Positions 26,426 to 56,086 of a stretch of 64,000 bases of DNA are shown here, piece after piece. Each line of letters starts with the position of its first letter. Positions within the stretch are counted from its first letter, which is position 1. The DNA lies in NCBI GenBank assembly GCA_027624625.1, contig JAQBWH010000002.1, positions 24,271 through 88,270 on the forward strand. Reading direction: 5' to 3'. The DNA is from Verrucomicrobiota bacterium. Its GTDB lineage: Bacteria; Verrucomicrobiota; Verrucomicrobiia; Chthoniobacterales; JACTMZ01. The notes under the pieces are model-generated. The model was not told where the DNA came from, did not search any database, and saw nothing but the letters and a program-made list of their open reading frames with translations. The translations under genes were made by a program, and so were the position numbers.

Positions 26426-26442
26426 GTGACAGAAAATTCACA
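26426..26442 (+). promoter_or_regulatory. Candidate Pho box (11-bp direct repeat)
   Basis: GTGACA-gaaaa-TTCACA, 50 nt before the likely start of the phytase-like esterase. Confidence 0.7.
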
Positions 26443-26491
26443 TCTGCTGCCTTTGCGAGGGTGCGGGAGTGGACTCACAAATGGCCACGCT

Positions 26492-27793
26492 GTGAAACGT
26501 CTCTGCACCATTCTGATTCTAGCGGCGGCGGTCACTGTGTCCGGGGCGGAACCCTCCACCCTTCTGCTCGCCGCTGGGCGCATCGCAGCCGATGCGTGCG
26601 ACGCCGAAGGCGAGACGATCGGCGGCATCGGTTCTGCCATCGAAGTGATGCCCTCCGGGGAAATCGCCATGCTCAGCGATCGTGGGGCAGGGGACGGCAC
26701 CATTGATTACCGCCCGCGCCTGCAGTTTTTCACTATGACACATAGCGGGTCCAAGCTCGACATGCAGCTGGCCCGCACTCTGGTCTTGCGCGACTCCAAC
26801 GGCCGCGCCTTCACCGGACTGTTCCCCGATACGCCCGCGGCCGAGCCGCCTCAGCGTATTGACGGACGGATGTGTCATGATCCTGAAGGACTCGCTGTGG
26901 CGGACAACGGCCATTTTTTCATTGCCGAGGAATACCACCCGTCTGTGCGCGAATTCGACGCCACCGGGAATTTCGTGCGGCGCTTTTCCACGCCCGCGGG
27001 CTTCGTCCCGCGGGGCTCCGCCGGGCCAGATTTCTCCGCGGATGAGAAGGACGCGCTTGTCGCGGGCCGCGAACCGAACCGCGGCTTCGAGGGTCTGGCC
27101 CTCCTGCCCGACGGGAACCTTGCGACCGTGCTGCAAAGCGGCCTGGTGCAGGATGGCGGACGCGAGGCCGGTTCCACCCTTCTGGTTGTTTATAACACCG
27201 AGTCGGCGGAGGTGGCGGCGATTTATCTCCTGCCTCTGGCCGATGCGGCGGAACTAGACGCTTCGGCTCCCGCCGGAAAGAAAATTAAGACGCGCCATCT
27301 GGTGGTGAGTTCCCTCGCCGCGTTGCCTGATGGACGGTTGCTCGCTCTCGAGCGTGACAATTTCGGTGCCGATGGCTCGGACGAACATCCGCCGGCCCGC
27401 TGGAAAGCCGTCGTGCTGCTCGATCTGCGCCGGGCGGACAACCTGCTCGGGCGAGCGGATGTTTCCGGCGCAGCGCCGGTCCAGCGCACTGTTCTTTTCA
27501 ACCTCGCCGCCCTCGATACCGCGGCGCACGGTCTGTCGCGCACGGAAATGCCCGCCAAATGGGAGGGTATCGCCTTGGCCGCGATCGACGGCGACCGCGT
27601 GCGTCTGTTGCTTTCCTCCGACAACGACTTTCTCGTCCCCGAACTCCGCCTCCGGCGGGGTGAAGGGGAGCCGACGGTGGTTCCCTTTCCCCGCGCTGCG
27701 CGCACCCAGGACACTTGGATCATCGAAGTCGAGACTCTCGTGCCGCCCCTTTCCGCCTCCCGGAATGCCGTCCCATCCATCATCCGCACATGA
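26492..27793 (+). CDS. Esterase-like activity of phytase family secreted protein
   Basis: Signal peptide; LSDRG, DPEGL, AEEY.PSV, NRGFEGL, LLALERD, KWEGIA, SDNDF. Confidence 0.8.
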   Translation: MKRLCTILILAAAVTVSGAEPSTLLLAAGRIAADACDAEGETIGGIGSAIEVMPSGEIAMLSDRGAGDGTIDYRPRLQFFTMTHSGSKLDMQLARTLVLRDSNGRAFTGLFPDTPAAEPPQRIDGRMCHDPEGLAVADNGHFFIAEEYHPSVREFDATGNFVRRFSTPAGFVPRGSAGPDFSADEKDALVAGREPNRGFEGLALLPDGNLATVLQSGLVQDGGREAGSTLLVVYNTESAEVAAIYLLPLADAAELDASAPAGKKIKTRHLVVSSLAALPDGRLLALERDNFGADGSDEHPPARWKAVVLLDLRRADNLLGRADVSGAAPVQRTVLFNLAALDTAAHGLSRTEMPAKWEGIALAAIDGDRVRLLLSSDNDFLVPELRLRRGEGEPTVVPFPRAARTQDTWIIEVETLVPPLSASRNAVPSIIRT

Positions 27794-28482
27794 AAAACCG
27801 AACCCGCGCCTTCACCCTGATCGAACTCCTCGTCGTCATCGCCATCATCGCCGTTCTTGCCGCATTGGCTTTTCCTGCGGTGGGCAACGCCATGTCGTCC
27901 TCGCAGCGGGCCGCGGCCCTGAACAACATCAAGCAAATCAGCACGTTGACCGTGACCTATGCGGCCGACCACAACGGGCTGCTGCCCGAGGAGGGCGGCG
28001 AGGGGGTGCAGTCCTTCAGCCGCGTCAAGTCCGCGACCAACGCGTGGTATAACGTGCTTCCGCCGCTGGCCGGTCTGAAAGCGGCCCGCGAGCACGACCG
28101 CTTCACCTTCCACGGCCCCGAGTCGCTCTTTTTCGTCAAGGGCGCGAAATATCCGGCCCGCACCGGTTCCAGCGCTTACTTTGCCTATGGCATCAACTCG
28201 CAGTTGATGGACAACACGCGCACGCGGATCCGTCTCCACCAGATCACCCATCCCGCGCGGACCGCTCTCTTCGCCGAAGCCGGGTTGCCCGACGAGAAAG
28301 CGCTCCTGCCCAAGGGCGGGGCGGCTTCCGACCTCGGACAACCCAAGGTCCGCGACCGGCGTTTCATCGGCCGCCACAACGGCACCGGCATCATCGGTTT
28401 CGCCGACGGCCACGCCGAAGTCGTCCCGGTTGACCGTGCTTTCGACACCAACGTCGTGCGTTGGGAACTCGCCGCCAACTGA
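27790..28482 (+). CDS. Prepilin-type N-terminal cleavage/methylation protein with H-X9-DG motif
   Basis: AFTLIELLVVIAIIAVLA; C-terminal RHNGTGIIGFADGH. Confidence 0.9.
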   Translation: MKNRTRAFTLIELLVVIAIIAVLAALAFPAVGNAMSSSQRAAALNNIKQISTLTVTYAADHNGLLPEEGGEGVQSFSRVKSATNAWYNVLPPLAGLKAAREHDRFTFHGPESLFFVKGAKYPARTGSSAYFAYGINSQLMDNTRTRIRLHQITHPARTALFAEAGLPDEKALLPKGGAASDLGQPKVRDRRFIGRHNGTGIIGFADGHAEVVPVDRAFDTNVVRWELAAN

Positions 28483-28503
28483 ACCAATCCATCCTCCATT
28501 CCC

Positions 28504-31086
28504 ATGAAAAACATCCTCTCCCTCCTTGTGGCCGCGCTGGCCGTCGCCTCCACCGCCGCCGCGACTCCCATCCTCCGCATCACCGAAGTGATGAGTTCGT
28601 CCGGCAAAGGCGGCACGGTCGACTGGTTCGAATTGACCAACTACGGCGACACGGTCGCGGACATCACGGATTACCGGATGGACGACAATTCGTTCAGCTT
28701 CGCCAACTCAGTCGCGCTCATAGGCGTCAGCTCCATCGCGCCCGGCGAGTCTGTCATATTCCTCGAATCCTCCGGCGGTGCCGCCATCGCCGGCTTCCGG
28801 ACCTTCTGGGATCTCGGTGAGGCGCCGCAAATCGGCCACTACTCGGGCAGCGGCGTGGGCTTCAGCTCGAACGGCGACGGCGTCGTGGTTTTCGATGCAC
28901 TCGGTGTCGAGGTCACACCGCGGACCAGCTTCGGAGCCGCCACCTCGGGCAAGTCCTTCTACTGGGCCTACACTCCCTCCGGCGAAGCGGTGGCGACCGA
29001 GTCGGGCAACGTCAGCGCCAACGGCTTGCTCGACGGGCAGTCCACCTTCACCACGACCGGAGCCGTGCCGAACACCGGTTCGCCCGGCACGGCCGCCACC
29101 ATCGTGCCGGCGGAAATTGCGACCCTTTATTGGACGGCCAATGGCACCGCCCTCGGCGGCCATGGTCTCTGGACCGACGCCGGCGCGAATTGGTCCACGA
29201 ATACTTCGCCCGTCACAGGCACCGCGTGGATCGCGGGCAAGGAGGCCTCGTTCGGAGGGACAGCCGGCACGGTACAGGTGAACACAGCGCAATCGGCGCG
29301 CGCCCTTGCCTTCACGTCCGACGGCTACACGCTTTCCGGCAGCGGCAGCATCACGCTCTCCAACGGCATTGTCGCCGTATTATCGAATGACACCGCGACC
29401 ATCTCCGCCGCCCTGGCCGGCACCAACGGGCTGACCAGCTTCGGCTCCGGCACCGTCGTCCTTTCCGGAGCCAACACCTACACCGGAACCACGTCCGTCG
29501 CCCTCGGCTCCATGGTCCTCGGTGCGGCGCAGGGTCTTCCGTCCGGCTCGCTCGTCACCACCGCGCGCTTCACCACCTTCGACTTCGGCGCCCACGGTGC
29601 GATGGTCGGCGGCCTCGGCGGGGTGGGGACGTTTACCAATTTCAGCGGAACCCTCACCGTCAATGTCGCCGGCAGCGGCAACGTCCGCCTCGACGGCCGT
29701 TTGAGCGGCGCGGGCGATGTCGTCATCGACTCCGACGGCACCGGGGCGCAACGTTTCGACAGCTCGGCGCAGTCCCGCGCCGATGGCGCGCTCAAGGACT
29801 ACACCGGACGCACCATTGTGCGCCGCGGTTTGTTGCAGGTCGATGCGACCGGCGATCCCGTCTTCAACGGCGTGCCGGTCGCCACGTCGGAAGTCGTGGT
29901 CGAAGGCACATCCGAACTCTCCCGCGGCGAACTCGTGCTGGCCGGTGACGGCGGCGTCTACGAATTCGGGGCCGACCTCCCGCAGTTGCCCGTCATCACC
30001 CTCGCCGGCGGCACCCTTGGCAACGAAGCGCGCGAGGTCGTCGATCTTTACAACGACATCCTCGTCACCGGCACCGGCTCGGTCATCTCCTCGCGCGGCG
30101 CGGGCGACGGAGTCGCGACCTTCGCCGGCGAGTTCCAGTATTGGGGCGTGCTCGGCGGCAACGGCACCCTGCGCAAGTCCGGCCAGGGCGTTCTCATCCT
30201 GCACGAGGCCGCCGAATTCGCCGGTTCGTGGGACATCGCCAACGGCACCCTCGAAGTGCCGGCCGGGGGCGCGACCGGCAGCGGACCGGTGACGGTCACC
30301 CGCACGGTCACACCCGAGGGCGAAGAGCGGGGCGTGCTGCGCGGACGCGGCACCGCGGGCGGGAATGTCGCGGTGGCCGGAGAACTCGACCTGCTGGCCG
30401 AAAGCGGACGCCTGACCATCGGCGGTGATCTGGACCTGCTGTCCAGCGGCGTCCTGCGGTTCCATTTCTTCGGCGAAGCCGTGCCGTCCGTGCGCGCCAT
30501 CGCGACCGGCGCCTTCCGCGCACAAGCCGGCGCGGTGCTCCATGTCGAGGGCCCGGCGGTGGCCGGCACTTACCCTGTCCTGCTCGCCTCGGGCGGTCTC
30601 GATGGCGTCTTGTCGGTCACCGTGAGCGGACTCGAGGGCACCGGGTTGGCCGGTGTGCTCTCCGCGGACGGCAACACGCTCGTGCTGACCATTGCCGCGG
30701 ACACCGCGGAGACCTACGCATCCTGGTCGGGTGGCGTGCCCCCCGGCGACGATGTCAACGGCAACGGTTACACCGCCCTCGAGGAATTCGCCCTCGGTGC
30801 GGCCGCCCCGGGCGCATCTTTCTTCGTGCCTACGCAGGGCGCGACCAGTGCTGGCGGCACCAATTTCCTCACTCTCACCGCCGTGGTCCGCACCAACGGC
30901 ACCGGCCTGATCGTGACCGGCCAATCGGCGGCCGACCTCGCCGCGCCCGCGGCTTGGACAACAAACCGAGTCGACTACGTCCCCACGACCAACAGTGTGC
31001 CCGACGGTTGCCAGGAGCGCATCTACCGCACCCCGGCCGATGGAACCCGCAAATTCCTGCGGCTGCGCATGGAACTGGCGCCATGA
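28504..31086 (+). CDS. Large surface protein: lamin-tail-like domain, autotransporter-associated beta-strand repeats, C-terminal sorting-type tail
   Basis: Signal peptide; LRITEVM..DWFELTNYG; GSGTVVLSGANTYTGTT and KSGQGVLIL repeats; DVNGNG..LEEFALG...RKFLRL end; no beta-barrel. Confidence 0.78.
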   Translation: MKNILSLLVAALAVASTAAATPILRITEVMSSSGKGGTVDWFELTNYGDTVADITDYRMDDNSFSFANSVALIGVSSIAPGESVIFLESSGGAAIAGFRTFWDLGEAPQIGHYSGSGVGFSSNGDGVVVFDALGVEVTPRTSFGAATSGKSFYWAYTPSGEAVATESGNVSANGLLDGQSTFTTTGAVPNTGSPGTAATIVPAEIATLYWTANGTALGGHGLWTDAGANWSTNTSPVTGTAWIAGKEASFGGTAGTVQVNTAQSARALAFTSDGYTLSGSGSITLSNGIVAVLSNDTATISAALAGTNGLTSFGSGTVVLSGANTYTGTTSVALGSMVLGAAQGLPSGSLVTTARFTTFDFGAHGAMVGGLGGVGTFTNFSGTLTVNVAGSGNVRLDGRLSGAGDVVIDSDGTGAQRFDSSAQSRADGALKDYTGRTIVRRGLLQVDATGDPVFNGVPVATSEVVVEGTSELSRGELVLAGDGGVYEFGADLPQLPVITLAGGTLGNEAREVVDLYNDILVTGTGSVISSRGAGDGVATFAGEFQYWGVLGGNGTLRKSGQGVLILHEAAEFAGSWDIANGTLEVPAGGATGSGPVTVTRTVTPEGEERGVLRGRGTAGGNVAVAGELDLLAESGRLTIGGDLDLLSSGVLRFHFFGEAVPSVRAIATGAFRAQAGAVLHVEGPAVAGTYPVLLASGGLDGVLSVTVSGLEGTGLAGVLSADGNTLVLTIAADTAETYASWSGGVPPGDDVNGNGYTALEEFALGAAAPGASFFVPTQGATSAGGTNFLTLTAVVRTNGTGLIVTGQSAADLAAPAAWTTNRVDYVPTTNSVPDGCQERIYRTPADGTRKFLRLRMELAP

Positions 31087-31104: not shown

Positions 31105-31121
31105 GTGACAAAGAATTCACA
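31105..31121 (+). promoter_or_regulatory. Candidate Pho box
   Basis: GTGACA-aagaa-TTCACA, 100 nt upstream of the PEP-CTERM gene. Confidence 0.7.
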
Positions 31122-31220: not shown

Positions 31221-32003
31221 ATGAAAAAACTCCTCACCACCATCGCCCTCGCGGGCGCAATCATCACCGGCGCGCAAGCGCAGGGCATCATCATCTCCGA
31301 AATCAACTCCAACGGCACCGGAGGTGATTTCTTCGAGATCTACAACTACGGCGCGACGGCCGTGGAACTCGGCGGCTGGAAATGGGTCGACAATGCCAGT
31401 GCGGCCAATGGCGGCCCGTCCTTCAATGGCGCCCGCGCCTACGCCTTCGACGCGTTCAGCCTCAATCCCGGGGGCATTGCGCTGGTCCCCACCGATGCCG
31501 GCGGCAACGCGGCGGGCAATACCGCCTTTGCCACCTCCTGGGGACTGATCGGCGCGAATTTCCTTACCTTCAACACCGGCCTCGGCACCGGCAACGGTCT
31601 CGGAAAGAACGATCTTGTCGCTCTCTTCGACAGCGCTGGCGTTTTCCAAACCGGGCTCAACTACGGCACGGCTGCGGTCACCGTCACCAACGGCGATAAC
31701 ACCACTGTCTCGCTCGCTCCTTTCAACCGCGTCGGTGGCGGCACCAGCGCTGGCGGACACGCCGGTGCGGCCGGTGGTGGCGCGGCCGCGCAGTCGCTCA
31801 TCTGGGATCCCGCCTCGCCCGGCAACGCCCCGCTCTACACCGCAGCCTCGAGCGTCGGCCTCTACGGCTCTTTTGAAAATCCCAGCGACGCAGGGACCAT
31901 TGGTTCCCCCAGCGTTGTCCCCGAGCCCAGCACCTATGCCATGCTGGCCCTAGCCGGTATCGGTCTTGCCGCCTACCGCCTGCGCCGCCGCGCGCGCCGT
32001 TGA
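31221..32003 (+). CDS. PEP-CTERM protein with lamin-tail-like domain
   Basis: Signal peptide; IIISEINSN..DFFEIYNYG; VVPEPSTYAMLALAGIGLAAYRLRRR. Confidence 0.9.
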   Translation: MKKLLTTIALAGAIITGAQAQGIIISEINSNGTGGDFFEIYNYGATAVELGGWKWVDNASAANGGPSFNGARAYAFDAFSLNPGGIALVPTDAGGNAAGNTAFATSWGLIGANFLTFNTGLGTGNGLGKNDLVALFDSAGVFQTGLNYGTAAVTVTNGDNTTVSLAPFNRVGGGTSAGGHAGAAGGGAAAQSLIWDPASPGNAPLYTAASSVGLYGSFENPSDAGTIGSPSVVPEPSTYAMLALAGIGLAAYRLRRRARR

Positions 32004-37520: not shown

Positions 37521-37588
37521 CCCGCGGCAGTCGGGACGCAACACCATGGCTGAGGAGACCGGGGCAGGCCAATAAGCCGCGGCTTTTT

Positions 37589-37605
37589 GTGACCAAATCT
37601 TCACA
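37589..37605 (+). promoter_or_regulatory. Candidate Pho box upstream of structured RNA
   Basis: GTGACC-aaatc-TTCACA followed by atttcccctttg, near-identical to the flank at 42650. Confidence 0.65.
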
Positions 37606-37693
37606 ATTTCCCCTTTGGAGAGTTGGCCCCGGTACGCTTTGCTTTCCTCCTATTCCCGCGGGCCTCCTGTCCGCGGAATTTTCCGGGGGGAAA

Positions 37694-37723
37694 AATGAAG
37701 GGTGCCGCAAGGTGCCCTTCATT
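37694..37723. terminator. 13-bp hairpin (leader hairpin on +, or terminator on -)
   Basis: aatgaagggtgcc-GCAA-ggtgcccttcatt. Two G-U pairs favour +; the A-run before it gives a U tract on -. Confidence 0.55.
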
Positions 37724-37902
37724 GCTCCTCCTGCGGAACGCATCAAGGGATGGCTGGTGCCAACCTCCACTTCCTGCTTCGCCGTGACAAGTCCCCGGCC
37801 CTGGCGAGACCGGTTTTACTTCAAAACCAGGGATTTGGCCTCCCGCTGAGCCTGGCGCCGAAGTGCGGCGCAGCAGCTTGATTTCGGCGGAGCGGGAGAA
37901 AT
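37724..37902 (+). ncRNA. 6S-like rod-shaped ncRNA candidate
   Basis: Nested helices gctcc/ggagc, atcaag/cttgat, gctg/cagc, cgcc/ggcg, ggcc/ggcc, ccctgg/ccaggg, apical ggtttt/aaaacc; pyrimidine-rich 5' bubble opposite hairpin gcgccg/cggcgc. Confidence 0.55.
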
Positions 37903-37919
37903 CCCGTCGGTCCCTTTTT

Positions 37920-37936
37920 GTTGCGGCTTTGTCACA
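37920..37936 (+). promoter_or_regulatory. Weak candidate Pho box upstream of ppk2
   Basis: GTTGCG-gcttt-GTCACA; first half degenerate. Confidence 0.4.
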
Positions 37937-37981
37937 TTCCTGTGCTTGGCCTCCGCGTGGCAGACGCGCATTTTGAGGAGG

Positions 37982-42310: not shown

Positions 42311-42359
42311 CTTTGGTTCGACCGGGATATCTCCTCGTGGCTATGACACTCTTTCCCGA

Positions 42360-42524: not shown

Positions 42525-42570
42525 GGTCAGAGCGGTAACCGCCCACCGTGGCCAAGGCAATCCCGGAAAT

Positions 42571-42587
42571 GTAACAAATAGTTCACT
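42571..42587 (+). promoter_or_regulatory. Candidate Pho box (distal, sigma factor promoter)
   Basis: GTAACA-aatag-TTCACT. Confidence 0.45.
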
Positions 42588-42638
42588 ATCAGCAACTTGA
42601 GATTGCAAACGCAAGGCCGGAAATTGGCCGGCCGGGGT

Positions 42639-42655
42639 GTGGCGAAATTTTCACA
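42639..42655 (+). promoter_or_regulatory. Candidate Pho box (proximal, sigma factor promoter)
   Basis: GTGGCG-aaatt-TTCACA followed by attccccctttg. Confidence 0.55.
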
Positions 42656-42708
42656 ATTCCCCCTTTGCCATCGGGGTGTCCCGGCGGTTCCCCTTGGGTC
42701 TGCCCGCC

Positions 42709-43596
42709 ATGCTCCCCAGCTACTTTCACGAAATCAGCCTCGTTCCGCTTTTGAGCTTGGAGGAAGAAACGGCGTTGGCGGAACGGGTGCAAGCGGGGTG
42801 CGAGGCGGCCCGGCACCGCATGATTGTGGCCAACTTGCGTCTTGTCGTGAAAATCGCCGGTGAATTCGTCCATCGGGGGGTGCCGCTCGACGACCTTATT
42901 TCCGAAGGCAACCTCGGGCTGATCCGGGCGGTGGAAAAATTCCGCCCTCAAAAAGGCGGCAAATTCAGTTCCTATGCCGCGTGGTGGATTCGCCAGGCCA
43001 TCCACCGCGCGCTCGGTGAGCAAAATCATGCCGTCCGGCTGAGCCCGCTCGCCATGAGCAAACTGTCCAAGCTCCGTCGCATCGCGCACAGCATGTCGGA
43101 CGCCCTCGGCCGCGAACCAACCGACGAGGAGTTGTCCGATGAACTCGGACTGGAGGCCGTCACGGTGACCAACCTCAAGAACGTGGCGGCCCGCCCGGCC
43201 TCGATGGACTCTTTGCTTTCCGGAGAGGTCGGGGCCACGCTGGGAAGTCTGCTCGTCGACGAACAAGCCGAGGACCCTCTAGAGGCGCTGAGCGGCAAAG
43301 ATCTGAGGGACAAAGCAGGGGAATTGCTCACCGTGCTGAAAAGCAGGGAGCGGGCGGTGGTCGTCCGCCGTTTCGGTTTGGACGGACACCAACCCATGAC
43401 CCTCGAGCTGATCGGCGCGGAACTCGGCTGCACCCGGGAAAGGGCGAGGCAAATTCTGCAGGACGCCCTCAAGCGGATGCGGCGCACTTTTTCCCGACAC
43501 CAGTCGCGGCAGTTCCTGCAAGTGGTGGCGGCCAACCCTCTCCGGTCACCCGGCGCAGCCACCATCTTGCTTCCTCCCGCCCGCTGTGCGGCCTAG
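42709..43596 (+). CDS. Group 2 (RpoD/RpoS-like) sigma-70 factor lacking region 1.1
   Basis: ANLRLVVKIA, DLISEGNLGLIRAVEKF, KFSSYAAWWIRQAI, TRERARQI. Confidence 0.92.
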   Translation: MLPSYFHEISLVPLLSLEEETALAERVQAGCEAARHRMIVANLRLVVKIAGEFVHRGVPLDDLISEGNLGLIRAVEKFRPQKGGKFSSYAAWWIRQAIHRALGEQNHAVRLSPLAMSKLSKLRRIAHSMSDALGREPTDEELSDELGLEAVTVTNLKNVAARPASMDSLLSGEVGATLGSLLVDEQAEDPLEALSGKDLRDKAGELLTVLKSRERAVVVRRFGLDGHQPMTLELIGAELGCTRERARQILQDALKRMRRTFSRHQSRQFLQVVAANPLRSPGAATILLPPARCAA

Positions 43597-46438: not shown

Positions 46439-47146
46439 TCAGTCGTCCTCGTCGGCCCGGAAGAGATAGCCTTCCCCGTGCACGGTCTGGAGGCGGGCTT
46501 GGTGCGGCTTGAGCTTGGCCCGCAACCGGCGGACGTGCGTGTCCACGGTGCGGCTGCTGCTCATGTTGCGGTAGCCCCAGACGTCATGGAGCAGAGTTTC
46601 CCGGGTCAGCACCTGTCCGCGCTTTTCCATCAGGGCCACGAGGAGTCGGAATTCGAGTGCTGTCAGGTCGAGCTTGCGTCCGCCCAAGCGCACTTCGAAA
46701 GTTGCCCGGTCGAGAGCAAAGGGCCCGACCTGGAGCTGCTCGCCGGAATTGGAGGTGCGGGATTTTTGGATAAGCAAGCGGAGCCGCAGGACGAGTTCTC
46801 GCGGGCTGAAAGGTTTGGTCAGGTAATCGTCGGCACCCAACTCGAGACCGGCCACCCGGTCCTCGGGGCGGGCTTTGGCCGTGAGCATAATGACCGGAAT
46901 CCGGGCTGTGATCTCGCGCGCGCGCAATTGACGGCAAACATCTTCACCTCGCATCTCCGGGATCATCAGGTCGAGCACGACGGCCGAGGGCAATTTTTCG
47001 CGCGCCAATTTCAGGCCTGCCATCCCGTCCGATGCTTCAATCACGACAAAACCTTCTTTGCGCAAATGCAACCGGATCAGGTCGAGAACGTCGGGCTCGT
47101 CCTCGATGATCAGAACAACGTCTTTTGGGGGCGATTTGGCGGGCAT
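46439..47146 (-). CDS. Orphan PhoB/OmpR-family response regulator
   Basis: IIEDE, VVLDLMIP, IMLTAK, DDYLTKPFSPREL, SRTVDTHVRRLRAKL. Confidence 0.92.
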   Translation of the reverse strand: MPAKSPPKDVVLIIEDEPDVLDLIRLHLRKEGFVVIEASDGMAGLKLAREKLPSAVVLDLMIPEMRGEDVCRQLRAREITARIPVIMLTAKARPEDRVAGLELGADDYLTKPFSPRELVLRLRLLIQKSRTSNSGEQLQVGPFALDRATFEVRLGGRKLDLTALEFRLLVALMEKRGQVLTRETLLHDVWGYRNMSSSRTVDTHVRRLRAKLKPHQARLQTVHGEGYLFRADEDD

Positions 47147-47223: not shown

Positions 47224-47240
47224 GTGACGAAATTGTTACA
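47224..47240 (+). promoter_or_regulatory. Candidate Pho box
   Basis: GTGACG-aaatt-GTTACA between the divergent response regulator and metallophosphoesterase genes. Confidence 0.65.
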
Positions 47241-47288: not shown

Positions 47289-48047
47289 ATGATGACCCAT
47301 CGCGCGGGCTGGATTTCCGATGTGCATCTCGGCACCAGAGGTTGCCAAGCCGAGGCCTTGCTTGAATTTCTCCGCGACCACGAATTCGAGACATTGTATT
47401 TAGTGGGAGACTTGATCGATATCTGGTCCTTGCGCCGGCGCCGTTACTGGCCGCAGGCCCACAGCGACGTGGTGCAAAAACTCCTGCGCAAGTCACGCAA
47501 GGGCACCCGGCTGATTTACATTCCGGGTAACCACGACGAATTTGTCGCGGAATTTCCCGGTGATTTCGGCAATATCGAAATCATGCCGCGCGCCGTGCAC
47601 CGGACGTGGGACGGACGCAAAATTCTCATTATCCACGGGCATGAGTTGGATACCGTGGTGCAGAACATGGGGTGGCTGGCGCACGCCGGCGGGCTTGGTT
47701 ACGAACTACTGCTGCAGGCGAACCATCCGGTGCATTGGGTGCGCCACCGGCTCGGCCTCGCGCCGTGGTCGCTGAGCGCCTACATCAAATCACGGGTCAA
47801 AAATGCGGTGAATTTTATCAGCGACTTCGAGGAAGCGATGGCCCGCTACGCGCGGGATGCCGGCGCCAGCGCGGTCCTCTGCGGGCACATCCATATGCCG
47901 TCCGTGCGTAGAATCGGAGAGCTCAGCTATTACAATTGCGGCGATTGGGTCGAGCATTGCACCGCTCTGGTCGAGAACCGTGACGGAAAGATCGAACTGC
48001 TGCGCCTGCGCGATTCCGCGGCGGCCGTCGCCGCGACTTCGCTGTAA
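47289..48047 (+). CDS. LpxH-like metallophosphoesterase, PlcP-type phospholipase C candidate
   Basis: SDVHLGTRGCQA, VGDLID, WPQAHSDVVQKLL, PGNHD, GHIH, NCGDWVE. Confidence 0.8.
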   Translation: MMTHRAGWISDVHLGTRGCQAEALLEFLRDHEFETLYLVGDLIDIWSLRRRRYWPQAHSDVVQKLLRKSRKGTRLIYIPGNHDEFVAEFPGDFGNIEIMPRAVHRTWDGRKILIIHGHELDTVVQNMGWLAHAGGLGYELLLQANHPVHWVRHRLGLAPWSLSAYIKSRVKNAVNFISDFEEAMARYARDAGASAVLCGHIHMPSVRRIGELSYYNCGDWVEHCTALVENRDGKIELLRLRDSAAAVAATSL

Positions 48048-48533: not shown

Positions 48534-48979
48534 GGAAGAGCAGGTAGGGTTTGGGGCATGGTCAGGAGCCAGCAACGCAACCGTTCACTGATCTCGTCGC
48601 GGACCCGCCGGAAGACGGCAAGTCGGTCCGCTTCGGATCCGGTCGCCGCCGACGGGTCGTCAAAAGGCCAGTGCAGGACCTCGCCGAGGGCCGGGTAAAT
48701 GCGAGGACATTCGTTGCTCGCTCGGGCGCAAACGATGATGGCATACCGCACGGGCACATGACCGAGGATGCCCTCGAGGCCTTTTGAGGTGTGGCCGGAA
48801 AGGTCGATGCCGCACTCCCGCATGGCCTCCACCGCGAGCGGGTGCGGTTGACTTGGTTCGGTTCCCGCGCTGAAGACTTCGAACCGGTCGCCGGCCAGGT
48901 GGCGCAACCAACCCTCCGCCATCTGGCTGCGGGCCGAGTTGTGCGTGCAGAGGAAAAGAACGCAGGGTTTGCGGGTCAT
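48530..48979 (-). CDS. arsC: Arsenate reductase (LMWP fold)
   Basis: [32 protein letters not shown]. Confidence 0.88.
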
Positions 48980-49431
48980 CGGGGTGGTGGCGCGTTGGTT
49001 TTGTCGCGGCGTCCCGCCGCATAGGCTCCGAAAACACGGCGGAGTTCGTCGCGCACACGGCGGAATTGCGCGGCGATTTCTTCCGCGGTGCCGGTGGCGT
49101 GCGCCGGATCATCGAAGGGCCAGTGATGCCGGTTCACCTGGCCGGGAAAAACCGGACAAGCCTGGTCCGCATTCCCGCACACCGTGATGACCGTCTCCAC
49201 TTCACGGTCGAGAAATTCATCCATATGCTTCGAGGTGTGGGCGGAAATATCGATGCCGATTTCGGCGAGGGCCGCGATGGCTTGAGGATGGACATAGCCG
49301 GCCGGGTTGGATCCCGCACTACACACTTCGAGGAGGTCGCCGGCCGTGGCGCGAAGGATGCCCTCGGCCATGTGGCTACGGCAGGAGTTGCCCGTGCAAA
49401 GGATGAGGACACGCGGCTTCTCGGGCATCAT
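48976..49431 (-). CDS. arsC: Arsenate reductase (LMWP fold)
   Basis: [30 protein letters not shown]. Confidence 0.92.
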
Positions 49432-50618
49432 CTTGCTCCCTCCATGGCCTGGCGCACCGCACGGCAGGCCTCGCTTTGCAGGAACAGGCGGTCCGGTCCC
49501 GACAGCTCCTGCTCGCCGAGGCGGTCGGCTTCCGCGATGATTTCACGGGGGAAATATTTGCGCCGGAACCAGAGCGCGACATGGACGAGCCCGATGAGCA
49601 CGGGAACCTCGATCAGCGGCCCGACCACGGTGGCGAAGGCCACCCCGGAGGCGATGCCGAAGACACCGATGGCCACCGCGATGGCCAGTTCAAAATTGTT
49701 ACCTGCCGCGGTGAAGGCAAGGGTTGTGCTGCGCGAATAATCCGCCCCGATCCGGCGACCGAGAAAAAAGCTGAGGCCGAACATGAGAATGAAATAGATG
49801 GTCAGCGGCAGCGCGATACGGAGGACGTCCAGCGGGAGCTTCACGATGGCGCCGCCTTTGAAGGTGAACATCACCACGATGGTGAAAAGCAAGGCGATCA
49901 AAGTAACGGGTGAGATCACCGGGATGAATTTGCGGTCATACCACTCGATGCCTTTGAGCGGAATGAGGATAACGCGACTGAGCACACCCGCCGCGAAAGG
50001 AATTCCGAGGTAAATCATCACACTGGCGAAAATCTGGCCGATGGTCACGTCGGCCAGCGACTTTCCCCCGAGCCCCCGGACCATGGACAAGTCGATCCCG
50101 AGCAGACCGGGCAACCAGGTGATGAAGACCCACGCGTAGAGGCCGAAGGTGACAATCTGGAAGACGCTGTTGAGCGCAACAAGGCCGGCGCAATACTCGC
50201 TGCTCCCCTTGGCCAGCTGGTTCCAGACCAAGACCATGGCAATGCAGCGGGCGATGCCGACCAGGATGAGCCCGACCATGTAGTCCGGATGATCGCGGAG
50301 AAACAGGACGGCGAGGATGAACATGAGCACCGGACCGATGACCCAATTTTGCAGGAGGGACAACCCGAGGACTTGGGGGTTGGAGAAAACTTTGGGCATT
50401 TCCTCGTAGCGCACCTTGGCCAAAGGCGGATACATCATGAGGATGAGACCCGCCGCGATGAGGAGGTTTGTTGTTCCGACCGTGACCGGGGCGAAGAATG
50501 CCTCGGGATTAACAATGAGAAAATTGCCGGCCAGAACGCCGATTCCCATGGCGGCAAAAATCCACAAGGTGAGGTAACGGTCCAGGAAGGACATCCGGCG
50601 TGCGATCGAATCGTTCAT
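49428..50618 (-). CDS. acr3: ACR3 family arsenite efflux pump
   Basis: [53 protein letters not shown]. Confidence 0.95.
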
Positions 50619-50983
50619 ACCGGGGTGACGGAACCGCGATGCGGCGACTTGGTGTTGACAAGTTGGCCCAGCTTCCGCAAGTCCCGCCCGAAGACGGCCT
50701 CTTCACCCGCACAATCCTGCAGGCAGGCGAGGTTGGCTTCGAGCAGGGGAGGTCTCTTCTTGGTCAAACGATAAAGCACCCATTTGCCCTTCCGCTCGGT
50801 TGTCACCATCCCGTGGCGGCGCAGATAGGCCAGATGACGCGAAACCTTGGCCTGCGGTTCTCCGATGACATCCTGCAAATGGCAGACGCAGAGCGGTCCC
50901 CGGAGCAGCAAATGCACGATGCGCAAACGCGTGCGGTGACAAAGGCACTCGTGGATCCGGACCAAGTTCACGCCGGAAAACAT
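50615..50983 (-). CDS. arsR: ArsR/SmtB repressor
   Basis: [33 protein letters not shown]. Confidence 0.9.
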
Positions 50984-51025: not shown

Positions 51026-51211
51026 TCAGTCGTCCAGATCCGTATTCTGCATGCCCATGCGACTGCCCGGCAGATTGAACTGCGAGTAGCGCGATCCGCT
51101 GTCGGTCGGGTCTTGCTCGAAACCGGGACCGCCAGTGGGTGATTGCGCGGTTTGGCAACCGGGAAGCAAAAGCGCGAGGAGTAGGGCGAGAAGGAAGGTG
51201 GACTTTTTCAC
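51026..51211 (-). CDS. 61-aa putative lipoprotein
   Basis: GTG-KKSTFLLALLLALLLPGC lipobox, polar tail. Confidence 0.6.
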   Translation of the reverse strand: MKKSTFLLALLLALLLPGCQTAQSPTGGPGFEQDPTDSGSRYSQFNLPGSRMGMQNTDLDD

Positions 51212-51242
51212 GCCGGCAAATAACCACACCTGCGCTTCCGCA

Positions 51243-52223
51243 TCACGATTTTTCCGCCCTTGCTGGTCGAAAGCCGGCCAAGCCGTGGCGCGGCGGGAGG
51301 AAAGCTTCGCGGAAAATCCCGAGACGTTTTTTTGGGTATATCGGGCCTCTTTTTTCTGCCTCCGCCGAGACGTCGCTGTTCTGACGGATGGCCTGTGCCA
51401 TGAGGGAGAGCCACTCCAAGCGCGGTACCGGGGCGAGGTAGTAGCCGGAGTAAACGAGGGCATCGTCGGCGTCCTGCGGCGCGACCTGGAATGCCGCGCC
51501 GATGGTGTGGCCGAGTTGCCAGAGATTGTCATAGCGCAAAGATGCGTCGAGGCGCAGCGGCGTGGTGTTGGCGCTGTATCGGTTGTTTAGCTCCACGCTG
51601 CCGTGGAGGGGAAAGGAATCTTCCACCACCAGCTCCACGTCGACCGAGCCCGGCATGGCGCCGGGTTTGAATTCCGGGGTGACCCGCAGATCGGCGCGCC
51701 GGTTGAGCCGGATAACGTCCTTCTCCACGTCGCGGAAGTTCGGGATGGACCCCTCGGCGAGGGAGGGGGCCAGGCGTTTGATCCTTTCGATGTCGTGGTA
51801 TTTCGATCCGCGGACAGTGAGCCGCCCGACTGGCATTTCCTGCACGCTGAGGACAATGATTCCGCTGGTCGGATCTTGCGGCGGAATTTCCACGACCACC
51901 GTCTGGTAGCCCGCGCGGTGGTATCTTTGCTCCAGTGCGGCACGGGCCAATTCGACATCCTCCGCCGTGCGTTCCGGGCCGAGATAAGCGTAGACGGCGT
52001 AGTCCACTTGGTCGCGCGGCAGGTGGCGCGATCCGATCACGCGGTATTCGCGGATGTGGAAAGACGGAGGCGGGAGGTCGGAGCCCGTGCTTTCACCCGC
52101 CGCGTCCGTGGTCGGCACGGCCCGTGCAGCCTCGCGGGGCTCGGCCAGAAACGCGATCAGACCCACCGCAAAAAGGCAGGCGCGCAGAGACACGAGGCGG
52201 GCCAGTTTGGCGGGCGGGGACAT
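51243..52223 (-). pseudogene. Truncated ShlB/FhaC/HecB (TpsB) outer-membrane translocator
   Basis: Signal peptide, POTRA (IREYRVIG, LEQRYHRAGY), LHGSVELNN, YDNLWQLGH. Barrel-like sequence stops after QNSDVS (~51366) and runs into an unrelated tail. Confidence 0.75.
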
Positions 52224-52271
52224 GGACCATAAATAATAGGACGGGAATGCTTCTGCAGGACAGTCGCAGAA

Positions 52272-52288
52272 TGTGAAATTTCCGTCAC
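52272..52288 (-). promoter_or_regulatory. Candidate Pho box
   Basis: Minus strand GTGACG-gaaat-TTCACA, ~50 nt upstream of the TpsB start. Confidence 0.7.
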
Positions 52289-52315
52289 ATAGACCTTTTC
52301 CGACAGAGTAAAGGT

Positions 52316-53131
52316 TCAGCCGAAGCGGCCGGTGATGTAGTCCTCGGTACGCTTTTCCGAGGGGCTGGTGAAAATCTTCGCCGTGGTGCCGAATTCGACC
52401 AGTTTGCCGAGGTAGAAAAAGCCAGTGTGGTCCGAGCAGCGGGTGGCCTGCTGCATGTTGTGGGTCACGATGACAATGGTGAACTCTTTTTTCAGCTCGC
52501 TGATCAGCTGCTCGACCCGGGCCGTGGCAATGGGATCGAGGGCGGAGCAAGGTTCGTCCATGAGCAGAACCTTGGGCCGGTTGGCAATGGCCCGCGCGAT
52601 ACAGAGGCGTTGCATTTGTCCGCCGGACAGCCCGAGGGCACTCTGGTGCAAGCGGTCTTTGACCTCGTCCCACAAGGCGCCGCCGCGCAGGCTGCGCTCG
52701 GCCGCTTCGTCGAGCTGGGTGCGATCGTGCAGGCCGCAAATGCGCAGGCTGTAGACCACGTTTTCGTAGATCGACTTGGCGAAGGGGTTGGACCTCTGGA
52801 AAACCATGCCGACCAATCTCCGCAAGGCGATGACCTCGAGGGCAGGATCCCAGAGGCTGCGTCCGGCCAAAGTGATTTCCCCGGTGTGCCGCACGCCGTC
52901 GATCAATTCGTTCATCCGGTTGAAATTGCGGAGGAGGGTCGTTTTCCCACAGCCGGATGGACCGATGAACGCGGTGACCTGACGCTCGGGAATATCGAGG
53001 ACAACGTCGTGCAGGGCCTGGTTCTTGCCGTAGAAGAAGTTGAAGTCGCGCACCGAGATGATGGGCCGCCCTCCGGCAGGCGGGGACGTTTCCCGGGCGG
53101 GACCGGGGAGGGAAGTGGTCGCGTCAGGCAT
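52316..53131 (-). CDS. pstB: Phosphate ABC transporter ATPase
   Basis: [48 protein letters not shown]. Confidence 0.97.
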
Positions 53132-53134
53132 GGG

Positions 53135-54025
53135 TCAGTGTTTTTTGCTGAAAACGAGTTGGGCGGTCACGTTGGTCGCGGTGACAAGAAGAACCAGCAC
53201 GAGGGAAGCGGTCCAAGCCATTTTCACCTGATGTTCGAAGGGGACGATGGAAAAATTGTAAATGAGCACGGCCAGAGAGGCCGTTGGCTCCATCAGGGAG
53301 GACATCCAGAACTGGCTGAAGAGCGCAGTGAAGACAAGCGGTGCGGTTTCGCCGGCCGCGCGAGCCACGGCAAGCATCACTCCGGTCATGATGGCCGGCA
53401 TGGCTTCGGGCAGGACGATGCGGCGGATTGTCTGGAAGCGCGTGGCCCCGAGACCGTAGGAAGCCTCGCGGTAGGAACGCTGCACGCCGAGCAGGGCCTG
53501 CTCGGAGGTGAGCAAAATGGTCGGCAGCATGAGCACGCCGAGGGCGACACCGCCGGCCAGGGCGGAAAATTTTCCGGTGGCCAAAACAATCGCGGCAAAG
53601 GCGAAGACGCCGCAGATGATGGACGGGATGCCGGTGAGGAGTTTGGCCGTGAAGCGGGTGATGGTGGCGAGGCGCCCGGCCGGCTCGTATTCGCAGATGT
53701 AGATCGCGGCAAGAATGCCGGGTGGCCCGGACAGGGCCAGTCCGATCCCCACCATGAGGAAGGTGCCGACCACCGCGTTGCCGAATCCGCCGCCGGTCAT
53801 TCCGGCCGCGGGCGGCAACTGGGTGAAGATCGACCAGTCCAGCAAAGGCAGGCCATTCTTCACCACAAGGTACAGGATGGACGCGAGGGGCACGAGTGCC
53901 GCGAAGGACAGCGCGATGCACAGGCCGGTGAGGAGACGGTTGCCCAAGGAGCGGCCGATCAGTTTGGTCGAGTCGATGCCGTCTTCTTGGAAAAAGTTCT
54001 CGGCGTGGGTCAGAGGATTATCCAT
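53135..54025 (-). CDS. pstA: Phosphate ABC permease
   Basis: GIPSIICGVF, REASYGLGATR, ARAAGETAPL. Confidence 0.94.
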   Translation of the reverse strand: MDNPLTHAENFFQEDGIDSTKLIGRSLGNRLLTGLCIALSFAALVPLASILYLVVKNGLPLLDWSIFTQLPPAAGMTGGGFGNAVVGTFLMVGIGLALSGPPGILAAIYICEYEPAGRLATITRFTAKLLTGIPSIICGVFAFAAIVLATGKFSALAGGVALGVLMLPTILLTSEQALLGVQRSYREASYGLGATRFQTIRRIVLPEAMPAIMTGVMLAVARAAGETAPLVFTALFSQFWMSSLMEPTASLAVLIYNFSIVPFEHQVKMAWTASLVLVLLVTATNVTAQLVFSKKH

Positions 54026-54030
54026 ACGCG

Positions 54031-54987
54031 TCAGCGGATACCCGCCGTTCTTTTTTCGGTGTAGCGCAACACGGCTTCACCGGCGAAATTGACCGCGAGG
54101 GTCAGGGCGACGAGCACCAGCGCGGCATACATCAAAGCGGCGACCTGCATGCCCTCGGCCTCGCCGAATTGATTGGCCAACAGGCTGGCCAGGGTGCCGG
54201 ACGGGGCAAAAAGCGACCAAGAAAGGCGCGAACTGTTCCCGATGAGCATGGCCACAGCCATCGTCTCACCCATGGCCCGTCCCAGCGCGAGGATGGTTGC
54301 CGCGACCACTCCCGGTGCGGCGGTGGGGAGAATGACCCCGAGGATGGCTTCCCAGCGGGTGGCGCCGAGGGCGTAAGCACCCTCCCGTAAGGTCCGCGGC
54401 ACGGCGACGAGCGAGGCGCGTGAGATCGCGGTGATGGTCGGCAGCACCATAAGAGCAAGGACCACTCCGGCAGTGAGCAGGGAATTGCCGTAAGCGGGAC
54501 CGGTCAGGAAAGGAAGATAGCCGAAGCGCTCCGTGACCCAAGTGCCGAGGGATTGGATGAGGGGAACCACAACAAAGATGCCCCACAGTCCGTAGACCAC
54601 GCTGGGGATGGCGGCGAGAAGCTCGACGACAAAACGGACAAAGTCACGGGCCTGACGGGGGAGGAAATCCTCGCTCAAAAAGATGGCAATGGCCAAACCC
54701 GGGGGGAAAGCCAGGACCAAGGCGATGATCGCGGTGGCCACGGTGCCGACGAGGAAGGGCAGCACGCCGTAACGGTCGCGGTTGGGCTGCCACTGCGCGC
54801 CGGTCAAAAAACCAAGGCCGTGTTCTTCCAGGGCCGGTTTGGCTTCCTGGAAAACCTCCCAGAAAATCCAGCCAAGCACGAAGACCGAGGAGACTGCGGC
54901 CAGCGCGGTGAACCAGCGGAAAAAATCCGGAAGCCTGCGCGCCACGTTGTCATGGATGCCGCCCGAGCTGGTCTTGTCGGTCGTCAT
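54031..54987 (-). CDS. pstC: Phosphate ABC permease
   Basis: ELLAAIPSVVYGLWG, EGAYALGATRWE, GRAMGETMAV. Confidence 0.95.
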   Translation of the reverse strand: MTTDKTSSGGIHDNVARRLPDFFRWFTALAAVSSVFVLGWIFWEVFQEAKPALEEHGLGFLTGAQWQPNRDRYGVLPFLVGTVATAIIALVLAFPPGLAIAIFLSEDFLPRQARDFVRFVVELLAAIPSVVYGLWGIFVVVPLIQSLGTWVTERFGYLPFLTGPAYGNSLLTAGVVLALMVLPTITAISRASLVAVPRTLREGAYALGATRWEAILGVILPTAAPGVVAATILALGRAMGETMAVAMLIGNSSRLSWSLFAPSGTLASLLANQFGEAEGMQVAALMYAALVLVALTLAVNFAGEAVLRYTEKRTAGIR

Positions 54988-55003
54988 GGGGAGACGGGTC
55001 CGC

Positions 55004-56005
55004 TTAATCGATGGTGGAAAGCGCTGCGTTGGCCTTGGCCACCACGGACTCGGGCAGCGGGATGTAGCCGAGATCCAGCGCGAAGGATTGGCCCTCGGTC
55101 AGCCCGTAGGTCACGAAGTCCTTGAGCGCTTTGAGCTTCGCGGCATTGTCATACTTTTGGTAAAGCAAGAGCCAGGTGAACGAAGCAATAGGATAGCCGT
55201 CCGGAGCCGCGGTGTCGACCGGCCAGGCCCGAAGGTTTTCCGGCAACTCGACCGAGGCCAGCGCGGCGGCGCCGCTGAGTGGCGTGGGGACAATGAAGTT
55301 GCCCGACTTGTTTTCGACCGAAGCGACCGGCAACTTATTCTGTTCGGCGTAGCCGAATTCGACATAACCGATGGCGCCGGGAGTCTGTTTGACCAGCGCG
55401 GTGACCCCCTCGTTGCCTTTGCCGCCCACCCCGACGGGGAAGGTGACCGATTTGTCATATCCCACCTCTTCATCGAATTCGGGGCTGATCGCGGCCAGAT
55501 GTTGGGTAAAGACATAGGTTGTCCCGCTTCCGTCCGAGCGGTAGGCCACCATGATGGGTCGTGCGGGGAGCGGGAGGTCGGGGTTGGCCGCGACAATGGC
55601 CGGATCGTTCCACTTGGTGACCGTGCCCAAAAAGATGCCGGCCAGCGCGGCGCGGGACAACTTCAGCCCGGTCACGCCCTCCAGATTGTAGGCCAGCACC
55701 ACACTGCCGGCGGTGACCGGAATCATCACTGCCCCGCGTGGTGATTTGGCCATTTCGGCGTCGGTCATGGCGGCATCGCTCGCCCCAAAATCGACCACCC
55801 CTTGGAGAAAATTTTTCACCCCGGCCCCGCTGCCGACTGATTGGTAGTTTACTTCGATGGCCGGAACTTGCTTGTTGTATTCGACCGCCCAGCGCTGATA
55901 GAGCGGCGCGGGAAAGGTGGCGCCCGCCCCGGAAAGTTGCTGGGCTTGCAGCGGCGCGGTGAAGCCGGCCGCAAAAATGGCAAAATGGAATAGTGGCTTC
56001 TTCAT
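55004..56005 (-). CDS. pstS: Phosphate ABC substrate-binding protein
   Basis: GAGATFPAPLY, YQSVGSGAG, DFGASD, RSDGSGTT, YPIASFTW. ATG at 56005. Confidence 0.96.
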   Translation of the reverse strand: MKKPLFHFAIFAAGFTAPLQAQQLSGAGATFPAPLYQRWAVEYNKQVPAIEVNYQSVGSGAGVKNFLQGVVDFGASDAAMTDAEMAKSPRGAVMIPVTAGSVVLAYNLEGVTGLKLSRAALAGIFLGTVTKWNDPAIVAANPDLPLPARPIMVAYRSDGSGTTYVFTQHLAAISPEFDEEVGYDKSVTFPVGVGGKGNEGVTALVKQTPGAIGYVEFGYAEQNKLPVASVENKSGNFIVPTPLSGAAALASVELPENLRAWPVDTAAPDGYPIASFTWLLLYQKYDNAAKLKALKDFVTYGLTEGQSFALDLGYIPLPESVVAKANAALSTID

Positions 56006-56069
56006 CGGTGGGAGGTGGGAAGCAAAGTCTCGTTGCTGGGCGGACGCGAAAGAAGCGAAAAGCATGAAG

Positions 56070-56086
56070 GTGTCGGATTTGTCACA
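56070..56086 (+). promoter_or_regulatory. Candidate Pho box in pstS/phoU divergent promoter
   Basis: GTGTCG-gattt-GTCACA. Confidence 0.55.

Follow-up and report, generated by a model that had tools for sequence, protein, structure and literature searches.

A Candidate Pho Box and Phosphate-Starvation Regulon in a Chthoniobacterales Genome of the Phylum Verrucomicrobiota

Introduction

A stretch of 64,000 nucleotides from a verrucomicrobial genome (assembly GCA_027624625.1, contig JAQBWH010000002.1, positions 24,271 to 88,270), here called the window, carries the phosphate-uptake operon pstSCAB, phoU, ppk2, a PHO4-family transporter gene and the genes of two PhoB-type response regulators (RR). 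A 17-bp motif, GTGAC-N6-TTCACA, recurs in its intergenic DNA and had been read in the initial annotation as a Pho box that marks a PhoB regulon. The computational analysis described here supports that reading: the motif is very likely the Pho box of the Chthoniobacterales/Terrimicrobiaceae lineage, an operator for phosphorylated PhoB-type regulators. The support comes from a weight matrix of foreign pstS promoters that re-finds all sites and from boxes that stay with their genes in relatives despite a reshuffled gene order.

Chthoniobacterales and their relatives are abundant in soil. Full-text literature searches brought up neither a Pho box nor a PhoB regulon for Verrucomicrobia, nor a regulatory motif of any kind for Chthoniobacterales and relatives. 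The mechanism itself is textbook; what is new is a motif that can be used in an unstudied phylum.

The Locus and Its Motif Sites

The genes and motif sites of the locus are collected in Table 1. The window has a G+C content of 63%, at which raw lists of open reading frames (ORFs) are noisy, and genes were called via third-position G+C, Pfam and NCBIfam. Distances between boxes and genes were measured from the end of the box to the most plausible start codon.

Table 1. Genes, motif sites and related elements (positions are those of the window unless a locus of another genome, L001–L176, is named)
Feature	Position	Strand	Remarks
Exact box GTGACAGAAAATTCACA	26426..26442	+	ends 49 bp before GTG 26492 of the phytase-like esterase gene
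Phytase-like esterase	26492..27793	+	PF13449, 162 bits; signal-peptide-like N-terminus
N_methyl gene	27715-28482	+	downstream of the phytase-like esterase gene
LTD/PATR gene	28504-31086	+	downstream of the N_methyl gene
Exact box GTGACAAAGAATTCACA	31105..31121	+	19 bp past the stop of the upstream gene; ends 99 bp before ATG 31221
Secreted LTD-domain protein with PEP-CTERM anchor	31221..32003	+	
Exact box GTGACCAAATCTTCACA	37589..37605	+	no ORF behind; near-identical boxes in L175 (7730) and L176 (4784)
Structured segment common to L175	37650..37726	+	CCGCGG hairpin, UUUCCGGGGGGAAA, 10-bp GAAGGGUGCC/GGUGCCCUUC hairpin
ORF of 34-35 aa in relatives	L175 7793-7897; L176 ~4846-4953		
Variant box GTTGCGGCTTTGTCACA	37920..37936	+	45 bp before ppk2 ATG 37982
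ppk2	37982-38893	+	
PHO4-family phosphate transporter	39022-40521	+	
OprB-family porin	40570-42015	+	
Distal variant box GTAACAAATAGTTCACT	42571..42587	either	minus strand reads GTGAACTATTTGTTACA about as well; conserved in L173
Proximal box GTGGCGAAATTTTCACA	42639..42655	+	53 bp before sigma-factor ATG 42709
Sigma-70-family factor	42709..43596	+	regions 1.2, 2, 3, 4
RR1, orphan OmpR/PhoB-family response regulator	46439..47146	-	223 bits on the PhoB model
Box GTGACGAAATTGTTACA	47224..47240	unstranded	142-bp divergent gap; 48 bp to metallophosphoesterase ATG, 77 bp to RR1 ATG
Calcineurin-like metallophosphoesterase	47289..48047	+	Metallophos, Metallophos_2; divergent from RR1
TpsB-like gene, 326 aa	51243..52223	-	POTRA_2 (52 bits)
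Exact box	52272..52288	-	48 bp before TpsB-like ATG 52223; kept in L001 at 13729
pstSCAB operon	52316..56005	-	pstS 55004-56005, pstC 54031-54987, pstA 53135-54025, pstB 52316-53131
Weak box	56070..56086	unstranded	165-bp pstS/phoU gap; toward phoU GTGTCGGATTTGTCACA
phoU	56171..56863	+	TIGR02135, 167 bits vs cut-off 130; divergent from pstS
RR2	57757-58467	+	220 bits on the PhoB model
PhoR/PnpS-like histidine kinase	58395-59792 (ORF)	+	342 and 279 bits
TTG element, examples	26452-26454, 37615-37617, 42665-42667		often CTTTGG or CTTTGC
pstS upstream boxes	L003/L004; L005; L006; L007		TTGTGACAAAATTGTCACAA; TGTGACAAAAATGTCACA; TGTCACAGGATTGTAACA; TGTTACGCCATTGTCACA
pstS upstream boxes	L012; L016/L017; L039		CGTCACGTGATTGTAACA; TGACACAT..TTGT(A/C)ACA; GCCACACGATCGTAACA
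pstS upstream box, three tandem 11-bp units	L064		CGTCACGCGTT CGTCATCGGTT TGTAACA

On both strands of the window the exact motif GTGACNNNNNNTTCACA (GTGAC-N6-TTCACA) is present four times, at 26426(+), 31105(+), 37589(+) and 52272(-), as the initial annotation had stated. In dinucleotide-preserving shuffles the mean expectation is 0.02, and none of 100 shuffles reaches four. The sequence around the four exact sites is unrelated beyond about 22 bp, so the boxes are not copies of a longer repeat; a longer dispersed repeat or chance as their source is ruled out by the shuffle expectation, the unrelated flanks and the conservation in other genomes. A search that allows one mismatch brings in the site at 42639, one of five variants that had been proposed (37920, 42571, 42639, 47224 and 56070). 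All nine listed sites are intergenic, and intergenic DNA makes up 10.8% of the window, which gives a naive chance of about 2e-9 for all nine to fall there. When all pairs of 5-mers separated by gaps of 0-12 were counted in the 26 intergenic segments, the four best-ranked pairs proved to be facets of this motif.

The strongest test of the sites uses no window sequence at all. A weight matrix was made from nine pstS-promoter sites of other Verrucomicrobia, with the window and its nearest relative left out. Applied to the window it gives 15 matches of at least 12 bits, compared with 0.9 in Markov-simulated sequence, and all nine listed sites, the five variants included, are among them. The remaining matches (62468, 2949 and 50798) are weak, and the scan gave no comparable site among the housekeeping genes at 1-26 kb. 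The weak site at 62468-62489, CTGTGCCGAACTTGTCACC, lies inside the 3' end of miaA, 125 bp before hflX; it is kept in L001 (3793-3814) and resembles the site between the metallophosphoesterase and RR genes of L167. Its conservation may merely reflect the MiaA protein, since the site is coding.

Five promoters, those of the phytase-like esterase, ppk2, sigma-factor, metallophosphoesterase and TpsB-like genes, have 45-53 bp between the box and the start codon. The earlier statement that the sites lie just upstream of likely starts holds for seven of them, but not for 37589, which no ORF follows, or for 42571, which is 121 bp from the sigma-factor start. The box at 56070 is 84 bp from the phoU start and 64 bp from the pstS start on the opposite strand; read toward pstS, its sequence is TGTGACAAATCCGACAC with CTTTTCGCTTC behind it, the latter conserved in L001 and L174.

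Conservation in Other Genomes

A pstS query with one genome per species assigns the window to the Chthoniobacterales/Terrimicrobiaceae of the Verrucomicrobiota, with L001 91% identical and L002-L005 about 70% identical. The 17-bp architecture GTnAC-N6-GT[C/A]ACA occurs before pstS in ten other verrucomicrobial genomes (Table 1). Boxes are present at pstS and at other phosphate-acquisition promoters, and they are conserved across related genomes.

The L170 and L171 loci, whose PPK2 proteins are 84% identical to that of the window, have the gene order phoU / phoB-phoR-pstCAB, PHO4-OprB-PPK2 and metallophosphoesterase / RR. Despite this reshuffled order, boxes stand in the phoU-phoB gap, at two places before PHO4 (the nearer one at 44 bp from the ATG) and in the metallophosphoesterase-RR gap, and an exact GTGACGAATGCTTCACA (GTGAC-N6-TTCACA) lies about 46 bp before the ATG of ppk2. 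The proposed membership of ppk2 is upheld by this retention, as is that of PHO4 and phoU/phoBR. In L172 (73%) the GTCACA half-site is retained 49 bp before PHO4. The sigma-factor gene, also among the proposed targets, keeps a box in the orthologues of L173 (81%), L174 (73%), L175 (68%) and L176 (70%); in L174 the gene adjoins phoU-pstSCAB, and further boxes precede an RR gene and the gene of a giant LTD/fn3 protein. Box-like sites are also found upstream of the metallophosphoesterase orthologues in L166 (89%), L167, L168 and L169. The phytase-like esterase and the LTD/PEP-CTERM protein have no orthologues in the relatives' loci examined. Among 80 metagenome PPK2 loci, mostly from other phyla, the matrix picks out Pho boxes of the classical type upstream of PPK2 and pstS genes. 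A same-protein look-up for the PPK2 of the window led to the source organism alone, and an identical PPK2 locus stands on contig JAQCJT010000092.1 of GCA_027592505.1.

The TpsB-like gene is a more complicated case. A TpsB (ShlB/FhaC) transporter measures about 550 aa and combines one or more POTRA domains with a ShlB-type beta-barrel at the C-terminus. The 326-aa ORF of the window shows POTRA_2 and no ShlB-type barrel domain, so that the gene is, on its domain content, a truncated remnant and not the TpsB that had been proposed as a regulon member. The box part of that proposal stands, since boxes accompany TPS genes in L001, where one is retained before the counterpart of the remnant, and in L166, where they precede a 336-aa gene and the gene of a 3796-aa TPS-domain exoprotein (region 5792-13197). 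The intact, box-preceded exoprotein of L166 suggests that a phosphate-controlled secreted exoprotein was lost from the window genome.

Some further observations were made on the neighbourhood of the cluster. In all relatives the Pho cluster is flanked by the syntenic genes proC-TPR-S11 peptidase-uvrD, which there lie on the opposite side (window 21237-26241; L170/L171 12749-17131; also L175/L176). The Pho genes are rearranged and expanded in the window genome, where they occupy 30 kb compared with 12 kb in L170. In L003, a Terrimicrobiaceae-like relative, a good box, AGGTTACGAGATTGTCACA (5036-5057), stands 39 bp before the gene of a protein of 620 aa that contains a pyruvate-kinase barrel domain; this gene is a candidate for the regulon that would not have been expected. 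A tandem duplicate box in L175 was treated as an assembly artefact, since its copies flank a run of N.

Motif Anatomy: Direct or Inverted Repeat

The anatomy of the motif was derived from 40 compiled sites of the window and loci L001-L176. The consensus is T0 G1 T2 G3 A4 C5 R6 A7 A8 A9 T10 T11 K12 T13 C14 A15 C16 A17 w18 T19 T20. Three pairs of positions, T2/T13, A4/A15 and C5/C16, are near-invariant and exactly 11 bp apart, while positions 7-11 are 80% A/T. The motif accordingly has two units of 11 nt, in both of which a conserved core is followed by an A/T-rich, less conserved stretch. This corresponds to the PHO box as described elsewhere, in which two 11-nt direct-repeat units with seven conserved and four less conserved bases are bound by PhoB head-to-tail (PMC4415409).

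Several observations weigh against the assignment as a Pho box. The half-site core GTnAC is self-complementary, so that the sequence, flank composition included, fits direct and inverted repeats alike, and in the window's clade core identity is higher for the inverted (74%) than for the direct (57%) arrangement; in distant genomes the values are 71% and 70%. The two halves favour different central bases, G3 and C14, an asymmetry that identical tandem protomers would not obviously produce. The box in the pstS/phoU gap, which had been counted among the regulon sites and has counterparts before pstS in ten other genomes, is among the weakest in the window and has one good half only. No clear box precedes RR2/phoR; the region has only a single, poorly spaced TTAACA half-site. 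Both regulators score below the cut-off of 296 of the PhoB equivalog (TIGR02154), at 223 and 220 bits. Placement of the box at -35 is a guess from spacing, and no TATAAT-like hexamer follows the box or the TTG described below in the 40 sites or in 37400-38100, so that no -10 is visible. Finally, the cross-genome scan covered about 0.6 Mb of relatives' DNA picked around phosphate genes, and its specificity applies to those loci rather than genome-wide.

The first of these points raise a different reading, already allowed for in the initial annotation, in which the motif is an inverted repeat TGTGA-N8-TCACA for a symmetric dimer of another regulator, for example of the CRP/FNR family, and the true Pho box is elsewhere or absent. 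A T precedes all four exact sites, which are therefore perfect 5+5 inverted repeats, and the better inverted fit in the clade and the G3/C14 asymmetry are what a palindrome predicts. G12, which completes the palindrome, is present at 7/7 sites shared by divergent genes compared with 14/30 one-way promoters, a suggestive link to divergent promoters among sites that are not independent. The CRP site is TGTGA-N6-TCACA with half-site centres 11 bp apart, the distance for FNR is 9 bp, and the spacers are 4-6 bp. With its 8-bp spacer, the present motif as an inverted repeat has centres 13 bp apart, outside the 9-11 bp of CRP/FNR, whereas as tandem units its centres are exactly 11 bp apart; the geometry of the box therefore appears to favour PhoB. 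The left halves GTCAC, GTTAC and GACAC of distant Verrucomicrobia do not form a palindrome with the right half, and in L064 three units stand in tandem. Pfam scans of the window turned up no CRP/FNR-type gene, the pstS promoters show by eye no other conserved Pho-box-like element, and the cluster holds two PhoB paralogues, one with its own box. There is a precedent in GlxR, a CRP-family regulator that binds the pstS promoter of Corynebacterium glutamicum (PMC4415409), yet on this balance a CRP/FNR-type operator is improbable and the Pho-box reading is retained.

A second element follows the box at a fixed distance. TTG occupies positions 27-29, 10 nt past the box, exactly in 18/40 sites and within 1 nt in 20/40, where about 0.4 would be expected from base composition. 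It may be a -10-region element of box promoters. Its interpretation as the TG motif of an extended -10 was ruled out, as positions 31-36 lack conservation of A(-11)/T(-7). The pairing of box and TTG also brings up a promoter for an alternative sigma factor, such as that at 42709-43596, in place of an operator. The right half TTCACA resembles a -35 hexamer, TTG lies at a fixed distance behind the box, and a sigma-factor gene with its own box lies inside the cluster. Against this, only 9 nt lie between TTCACA and TTG, fewer than a -35/-10 pair requires. The left half is also as well conserved as the right one, although a -35/-10 promoter has no need of it, and the same motif precedes pstS in genomes without such a sigma gene nearby. 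A sigma-factor promoter is thus a very improbable explanation, and the motif continues to be best regarded as an operator of Pho-box type.

PhoB-Type Regulators

PhoB is the best-scoring model for both RR1 and RR2, which are 60% identical. Their recognition helices, SRTVDTHVRRLRAKL and SRTVDTHMRRLRAKL, follow the pattern RTVDTH(V/M)RRLR and resemble that of E. coli PhoB, RTVDVHIRRLRKAL (RTVDVHIRRLR). RR2 lies beside a PAS/HisKA kinase of PhoR type and near pstSCAB-phoU, the context of a functional PhoB, and together with this PhoR-like kinase is the presumed PhoBR. A single PhoB, the product of 57757..58467, had been named as the regulator; a PhoB-like gene is indeed found there, but the window holds two PhoB-like regulators. 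The orphan RR is always divergent from the metallophosphoesterase, and in four relatives the two genes have a box in common.

The presence of two regulators allows the possibility that the box is read mainly by the orphan RR1 and marks a sub-regulon or a second tier. RR1 has a recognition helix nearly identical to that of RR2, and its promoter has a box in the window, L166, L167 and L170, while that of RR2/phoR in the window does not have a clear one. In L170 and L174, however, a box precedes pstS and phoU-phoBR, which ties it to the PhoR-coupled system. With near-identical helices both regulators most likely bind the same sequence, and a box read mainly by RR1, which is unlikely, refines the Pho-box explanation more than it competes with it.

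The Box at 37589 and the Structured Segment

The box at 37589 had been assigned to a non-coding RNA. The segment 37630-37740 behind it is strongly structured (minimum free energy -55.4 kcal/mol, z = -4.75), and about 75 nt of it (37650-37726) recur in L175, with C-G and G-C in place of two U.G pairs. No known RNA family was found at Rfam gathering thresholds; a permissive search returned only int-alpA, with E=0.37 and on the opposite strand. The interval 37400-38100 contains no standard sigma-70 promoter and no intrinsic terminator.

The near-identical boxes of L175 and L176 precede a conserved basic ORF of 34-35 aa (MRK..WLEKLMDVFR...RKK.KG.I.W.C), behind which comes the CCGCGG hairpin. L176 has in addition a 26-aa hydrophobic ORF with a strong ribosome-binding site (~5085-5165) and a U-tailed terminator, the stem of which resembles the second hairpin of the window. 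The 34-35-aa ORF is absent from the window by alignment, and tblastn gives no significant match there. Because the relatives' box precedes a small ORF that the window lacks, 37650..37726 is probably the truncated remainder or the leader of a small-protein transcript that the box drives, rather than a free-standing small RNA. The structured element of the earlier assignment is therefore real, while its nature appears to be different. The small ORFs of L175 and L176 are candidate phosphate-starvation small proteins.

Other Genes of the Window

The first 26 kb of the window hold housekeeping genes, namely mfd, an NtrC-like regulator gene, uppS, purA, a LytTR two-component system, tilS, serS, a DnaJ-domain gene, proC, a D-alanyl-D-alanine carboxypeptidase gene and uvrD. 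Beyond them, the phytase-like esterase, N_methyl and LTD/PATR genes may form one operon, judged from their shared strand. SulP, Usp and prfC genes come after the LTD-PEP-CTERM gene, PEP-CTERM and N_methyl genes lie between the sigma factor and RR1, and a YkuD gene separates phoU from RR2. The PstS score is above its curated cut-off.

The best models for the sigma factor are RpoS and RpoD, both under their cut-offs, and the protein looks like a group-2 sigma factor. The porin-sigma gap (42016-42708) holds a stretch of about 140 nt with about 97% identity to L173, above the 81% of the sigma protein, and a 44-aa gene fragment is called at ~42124-42258. A bidirectional U-tailed terminator lies past the porin gene at 42278-42307. 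A minus-strand transcript ending at this terminator is possible, because the 42571 box reads equally well on the minus strand.

The metallophosphoesterase matches LpxH models weakly (46 bits compared with a cut-off of 134), its homologues are annotated as LpxH-like, and no glycosyltransferase gene lies beside it in the window or in L166-L170. Described earlier as a PlcP-like member of the regulon, it retains this place through the box kept with the metallophosphoesterase/RR pair in L166-L170; it has the metallophosphoesterase fold, and as to function it is a PlcP candidate only. An ars operon (ArsR, ACR3, ArsC, DUF6428) is found at 48075-50983, near the pst/Pho genes, and likewise in L166 and L174, a repeated association of genes for arsenate resistance and phosphate uptake. 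In the window pstB and arsR are only 1.3 kb apart, a distance that encloses the TpsB-like gene (51026-52316).

A Proposed Model of Phosphate Regulation

In the proposed model, low phosphate would be reported by PstSCAB-PhoU-PhoR, and phosphorylated PhoB-type regulators would then bind the box. The candidate binders are RR2, paired with the PhoR-like kinase, and probably also the box-controlled RR1. Because the best-conserved positions are exactly 11 bp apart, two regulator molecules would be expected to sit one helical turn apart, as E. coli PhoB does. The regulator would act as an activator rather than a repressor, recruiting RNA polymerase from the -35 region, which fits the 45-53 bp spacing and the TTG 10 nt downstream. 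Phosphate limitation would thereby switch on units with several roles. The phytase-like esterase and LTD/PEP-CTERM surface proteins would serve scavenging, pstSCAB and the PHO4 transporter with the porin would serve uptake, ppk2 would serve polyphosphate use, and the metallophosphoesterase might help to spare membrane lipids. Induction of phoU and RR1 would provide feedback, and the group-2-like sigma factor would form a second regulatory tier.

The PhoB paralogue, the group-2-like sigma factor, the TPS and LTD surface proteins and the small-ORF transcript are unusual members of the proposed regulon. A fuller picture can be drawn in which a near-palindromic, drifted Pho box is read by two PhoB paralogues, one of them box-controlled, G12 sites serve divergent pairs, the sigma factor and a small-protein/structured-RNA transcript are targets, TTG replaces a TATAAT-type -10, and control runs as a three-tier cascade from PhoB through the PhoB paralogue and sigma factor to late genes. 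That all of these features hold together is doubtful, and the picture is offered tentatively.

The model of the Pho box lets phosphate-starvation genes be predicted directly in many uncultured genomes of the phylum. It also singles out secreted proteins that lack annotation (the phytase-like esterase, the LTD/PEP-CTERM proteins and the giant TPS exoprotein) as candidates for the scavenging of organic phosphorus in soil, and the fixed TTG offers a starting point for work on promoter architecture in these bacteria. Annotation and ecology benefit from this more than the principles of regulation do.

Comparison with Known Systems

PlcP has been described in Verrucomicrobia, and plcP lipid-remodelling clusters contain putative Pho boxes (Sebastian et al. 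2016, PMC4796936), which fits the metallophosphoesterase of the window, a candidate PlcP, as a target. Both have an LpxH-like metallophosphoesterase behind a putative Pho box. Unlike those clusters, the present locus has no adjacent glycosyltransferase or lipid-synthesis gene and has a divergent PhoB paralogue instead.

With the CRP site the four exact sites share identical half-site pentamers, and they differ from it in the spacer of 8 rather than 6 bp and in a phosphate-specific regulon. The Bacillus subtilis PhoP box has the consensus TT(A/T/C)ACA in direct repeats. The right unit of the present box, TTCACA/GTTACA/GTAACA, is this Bacillus hexamer, and the 11-nt units are shared. The Streptomyces PHO box (GTTCACC in 11-nt units, PMC4415409) has the GTTCAC core in common. 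Boxes in Bacillus and Streptomyces usually have at least four units, whereas here there are mostly two and only L064 has three.

The E. coli or proteobacterial Pho box (CTGTCAT-N4-CTGTCAT) shares with the present motif the 11-bp register, the TGTnA(C) core and an A/T-rich tract of 4-5 bp, as well as the placement before pstS, phoU and scavenging genes, the PhoR-PhoU-PstSCAB system and the RTVDxHxRRLR helix. Unlike the E. coli box, that of this clade has GTGAC upstream and TTCACA or GTCACA downstream, is near-palindromic and is followed by TTG with no TATAAT-like -10. In distant Verrucomicrobia the classical E. coli-type box is matched almost exactly, as in L006 (TGTCACAGGATTGTAACA) and L169 (GTCACAGTCACGTCACA).

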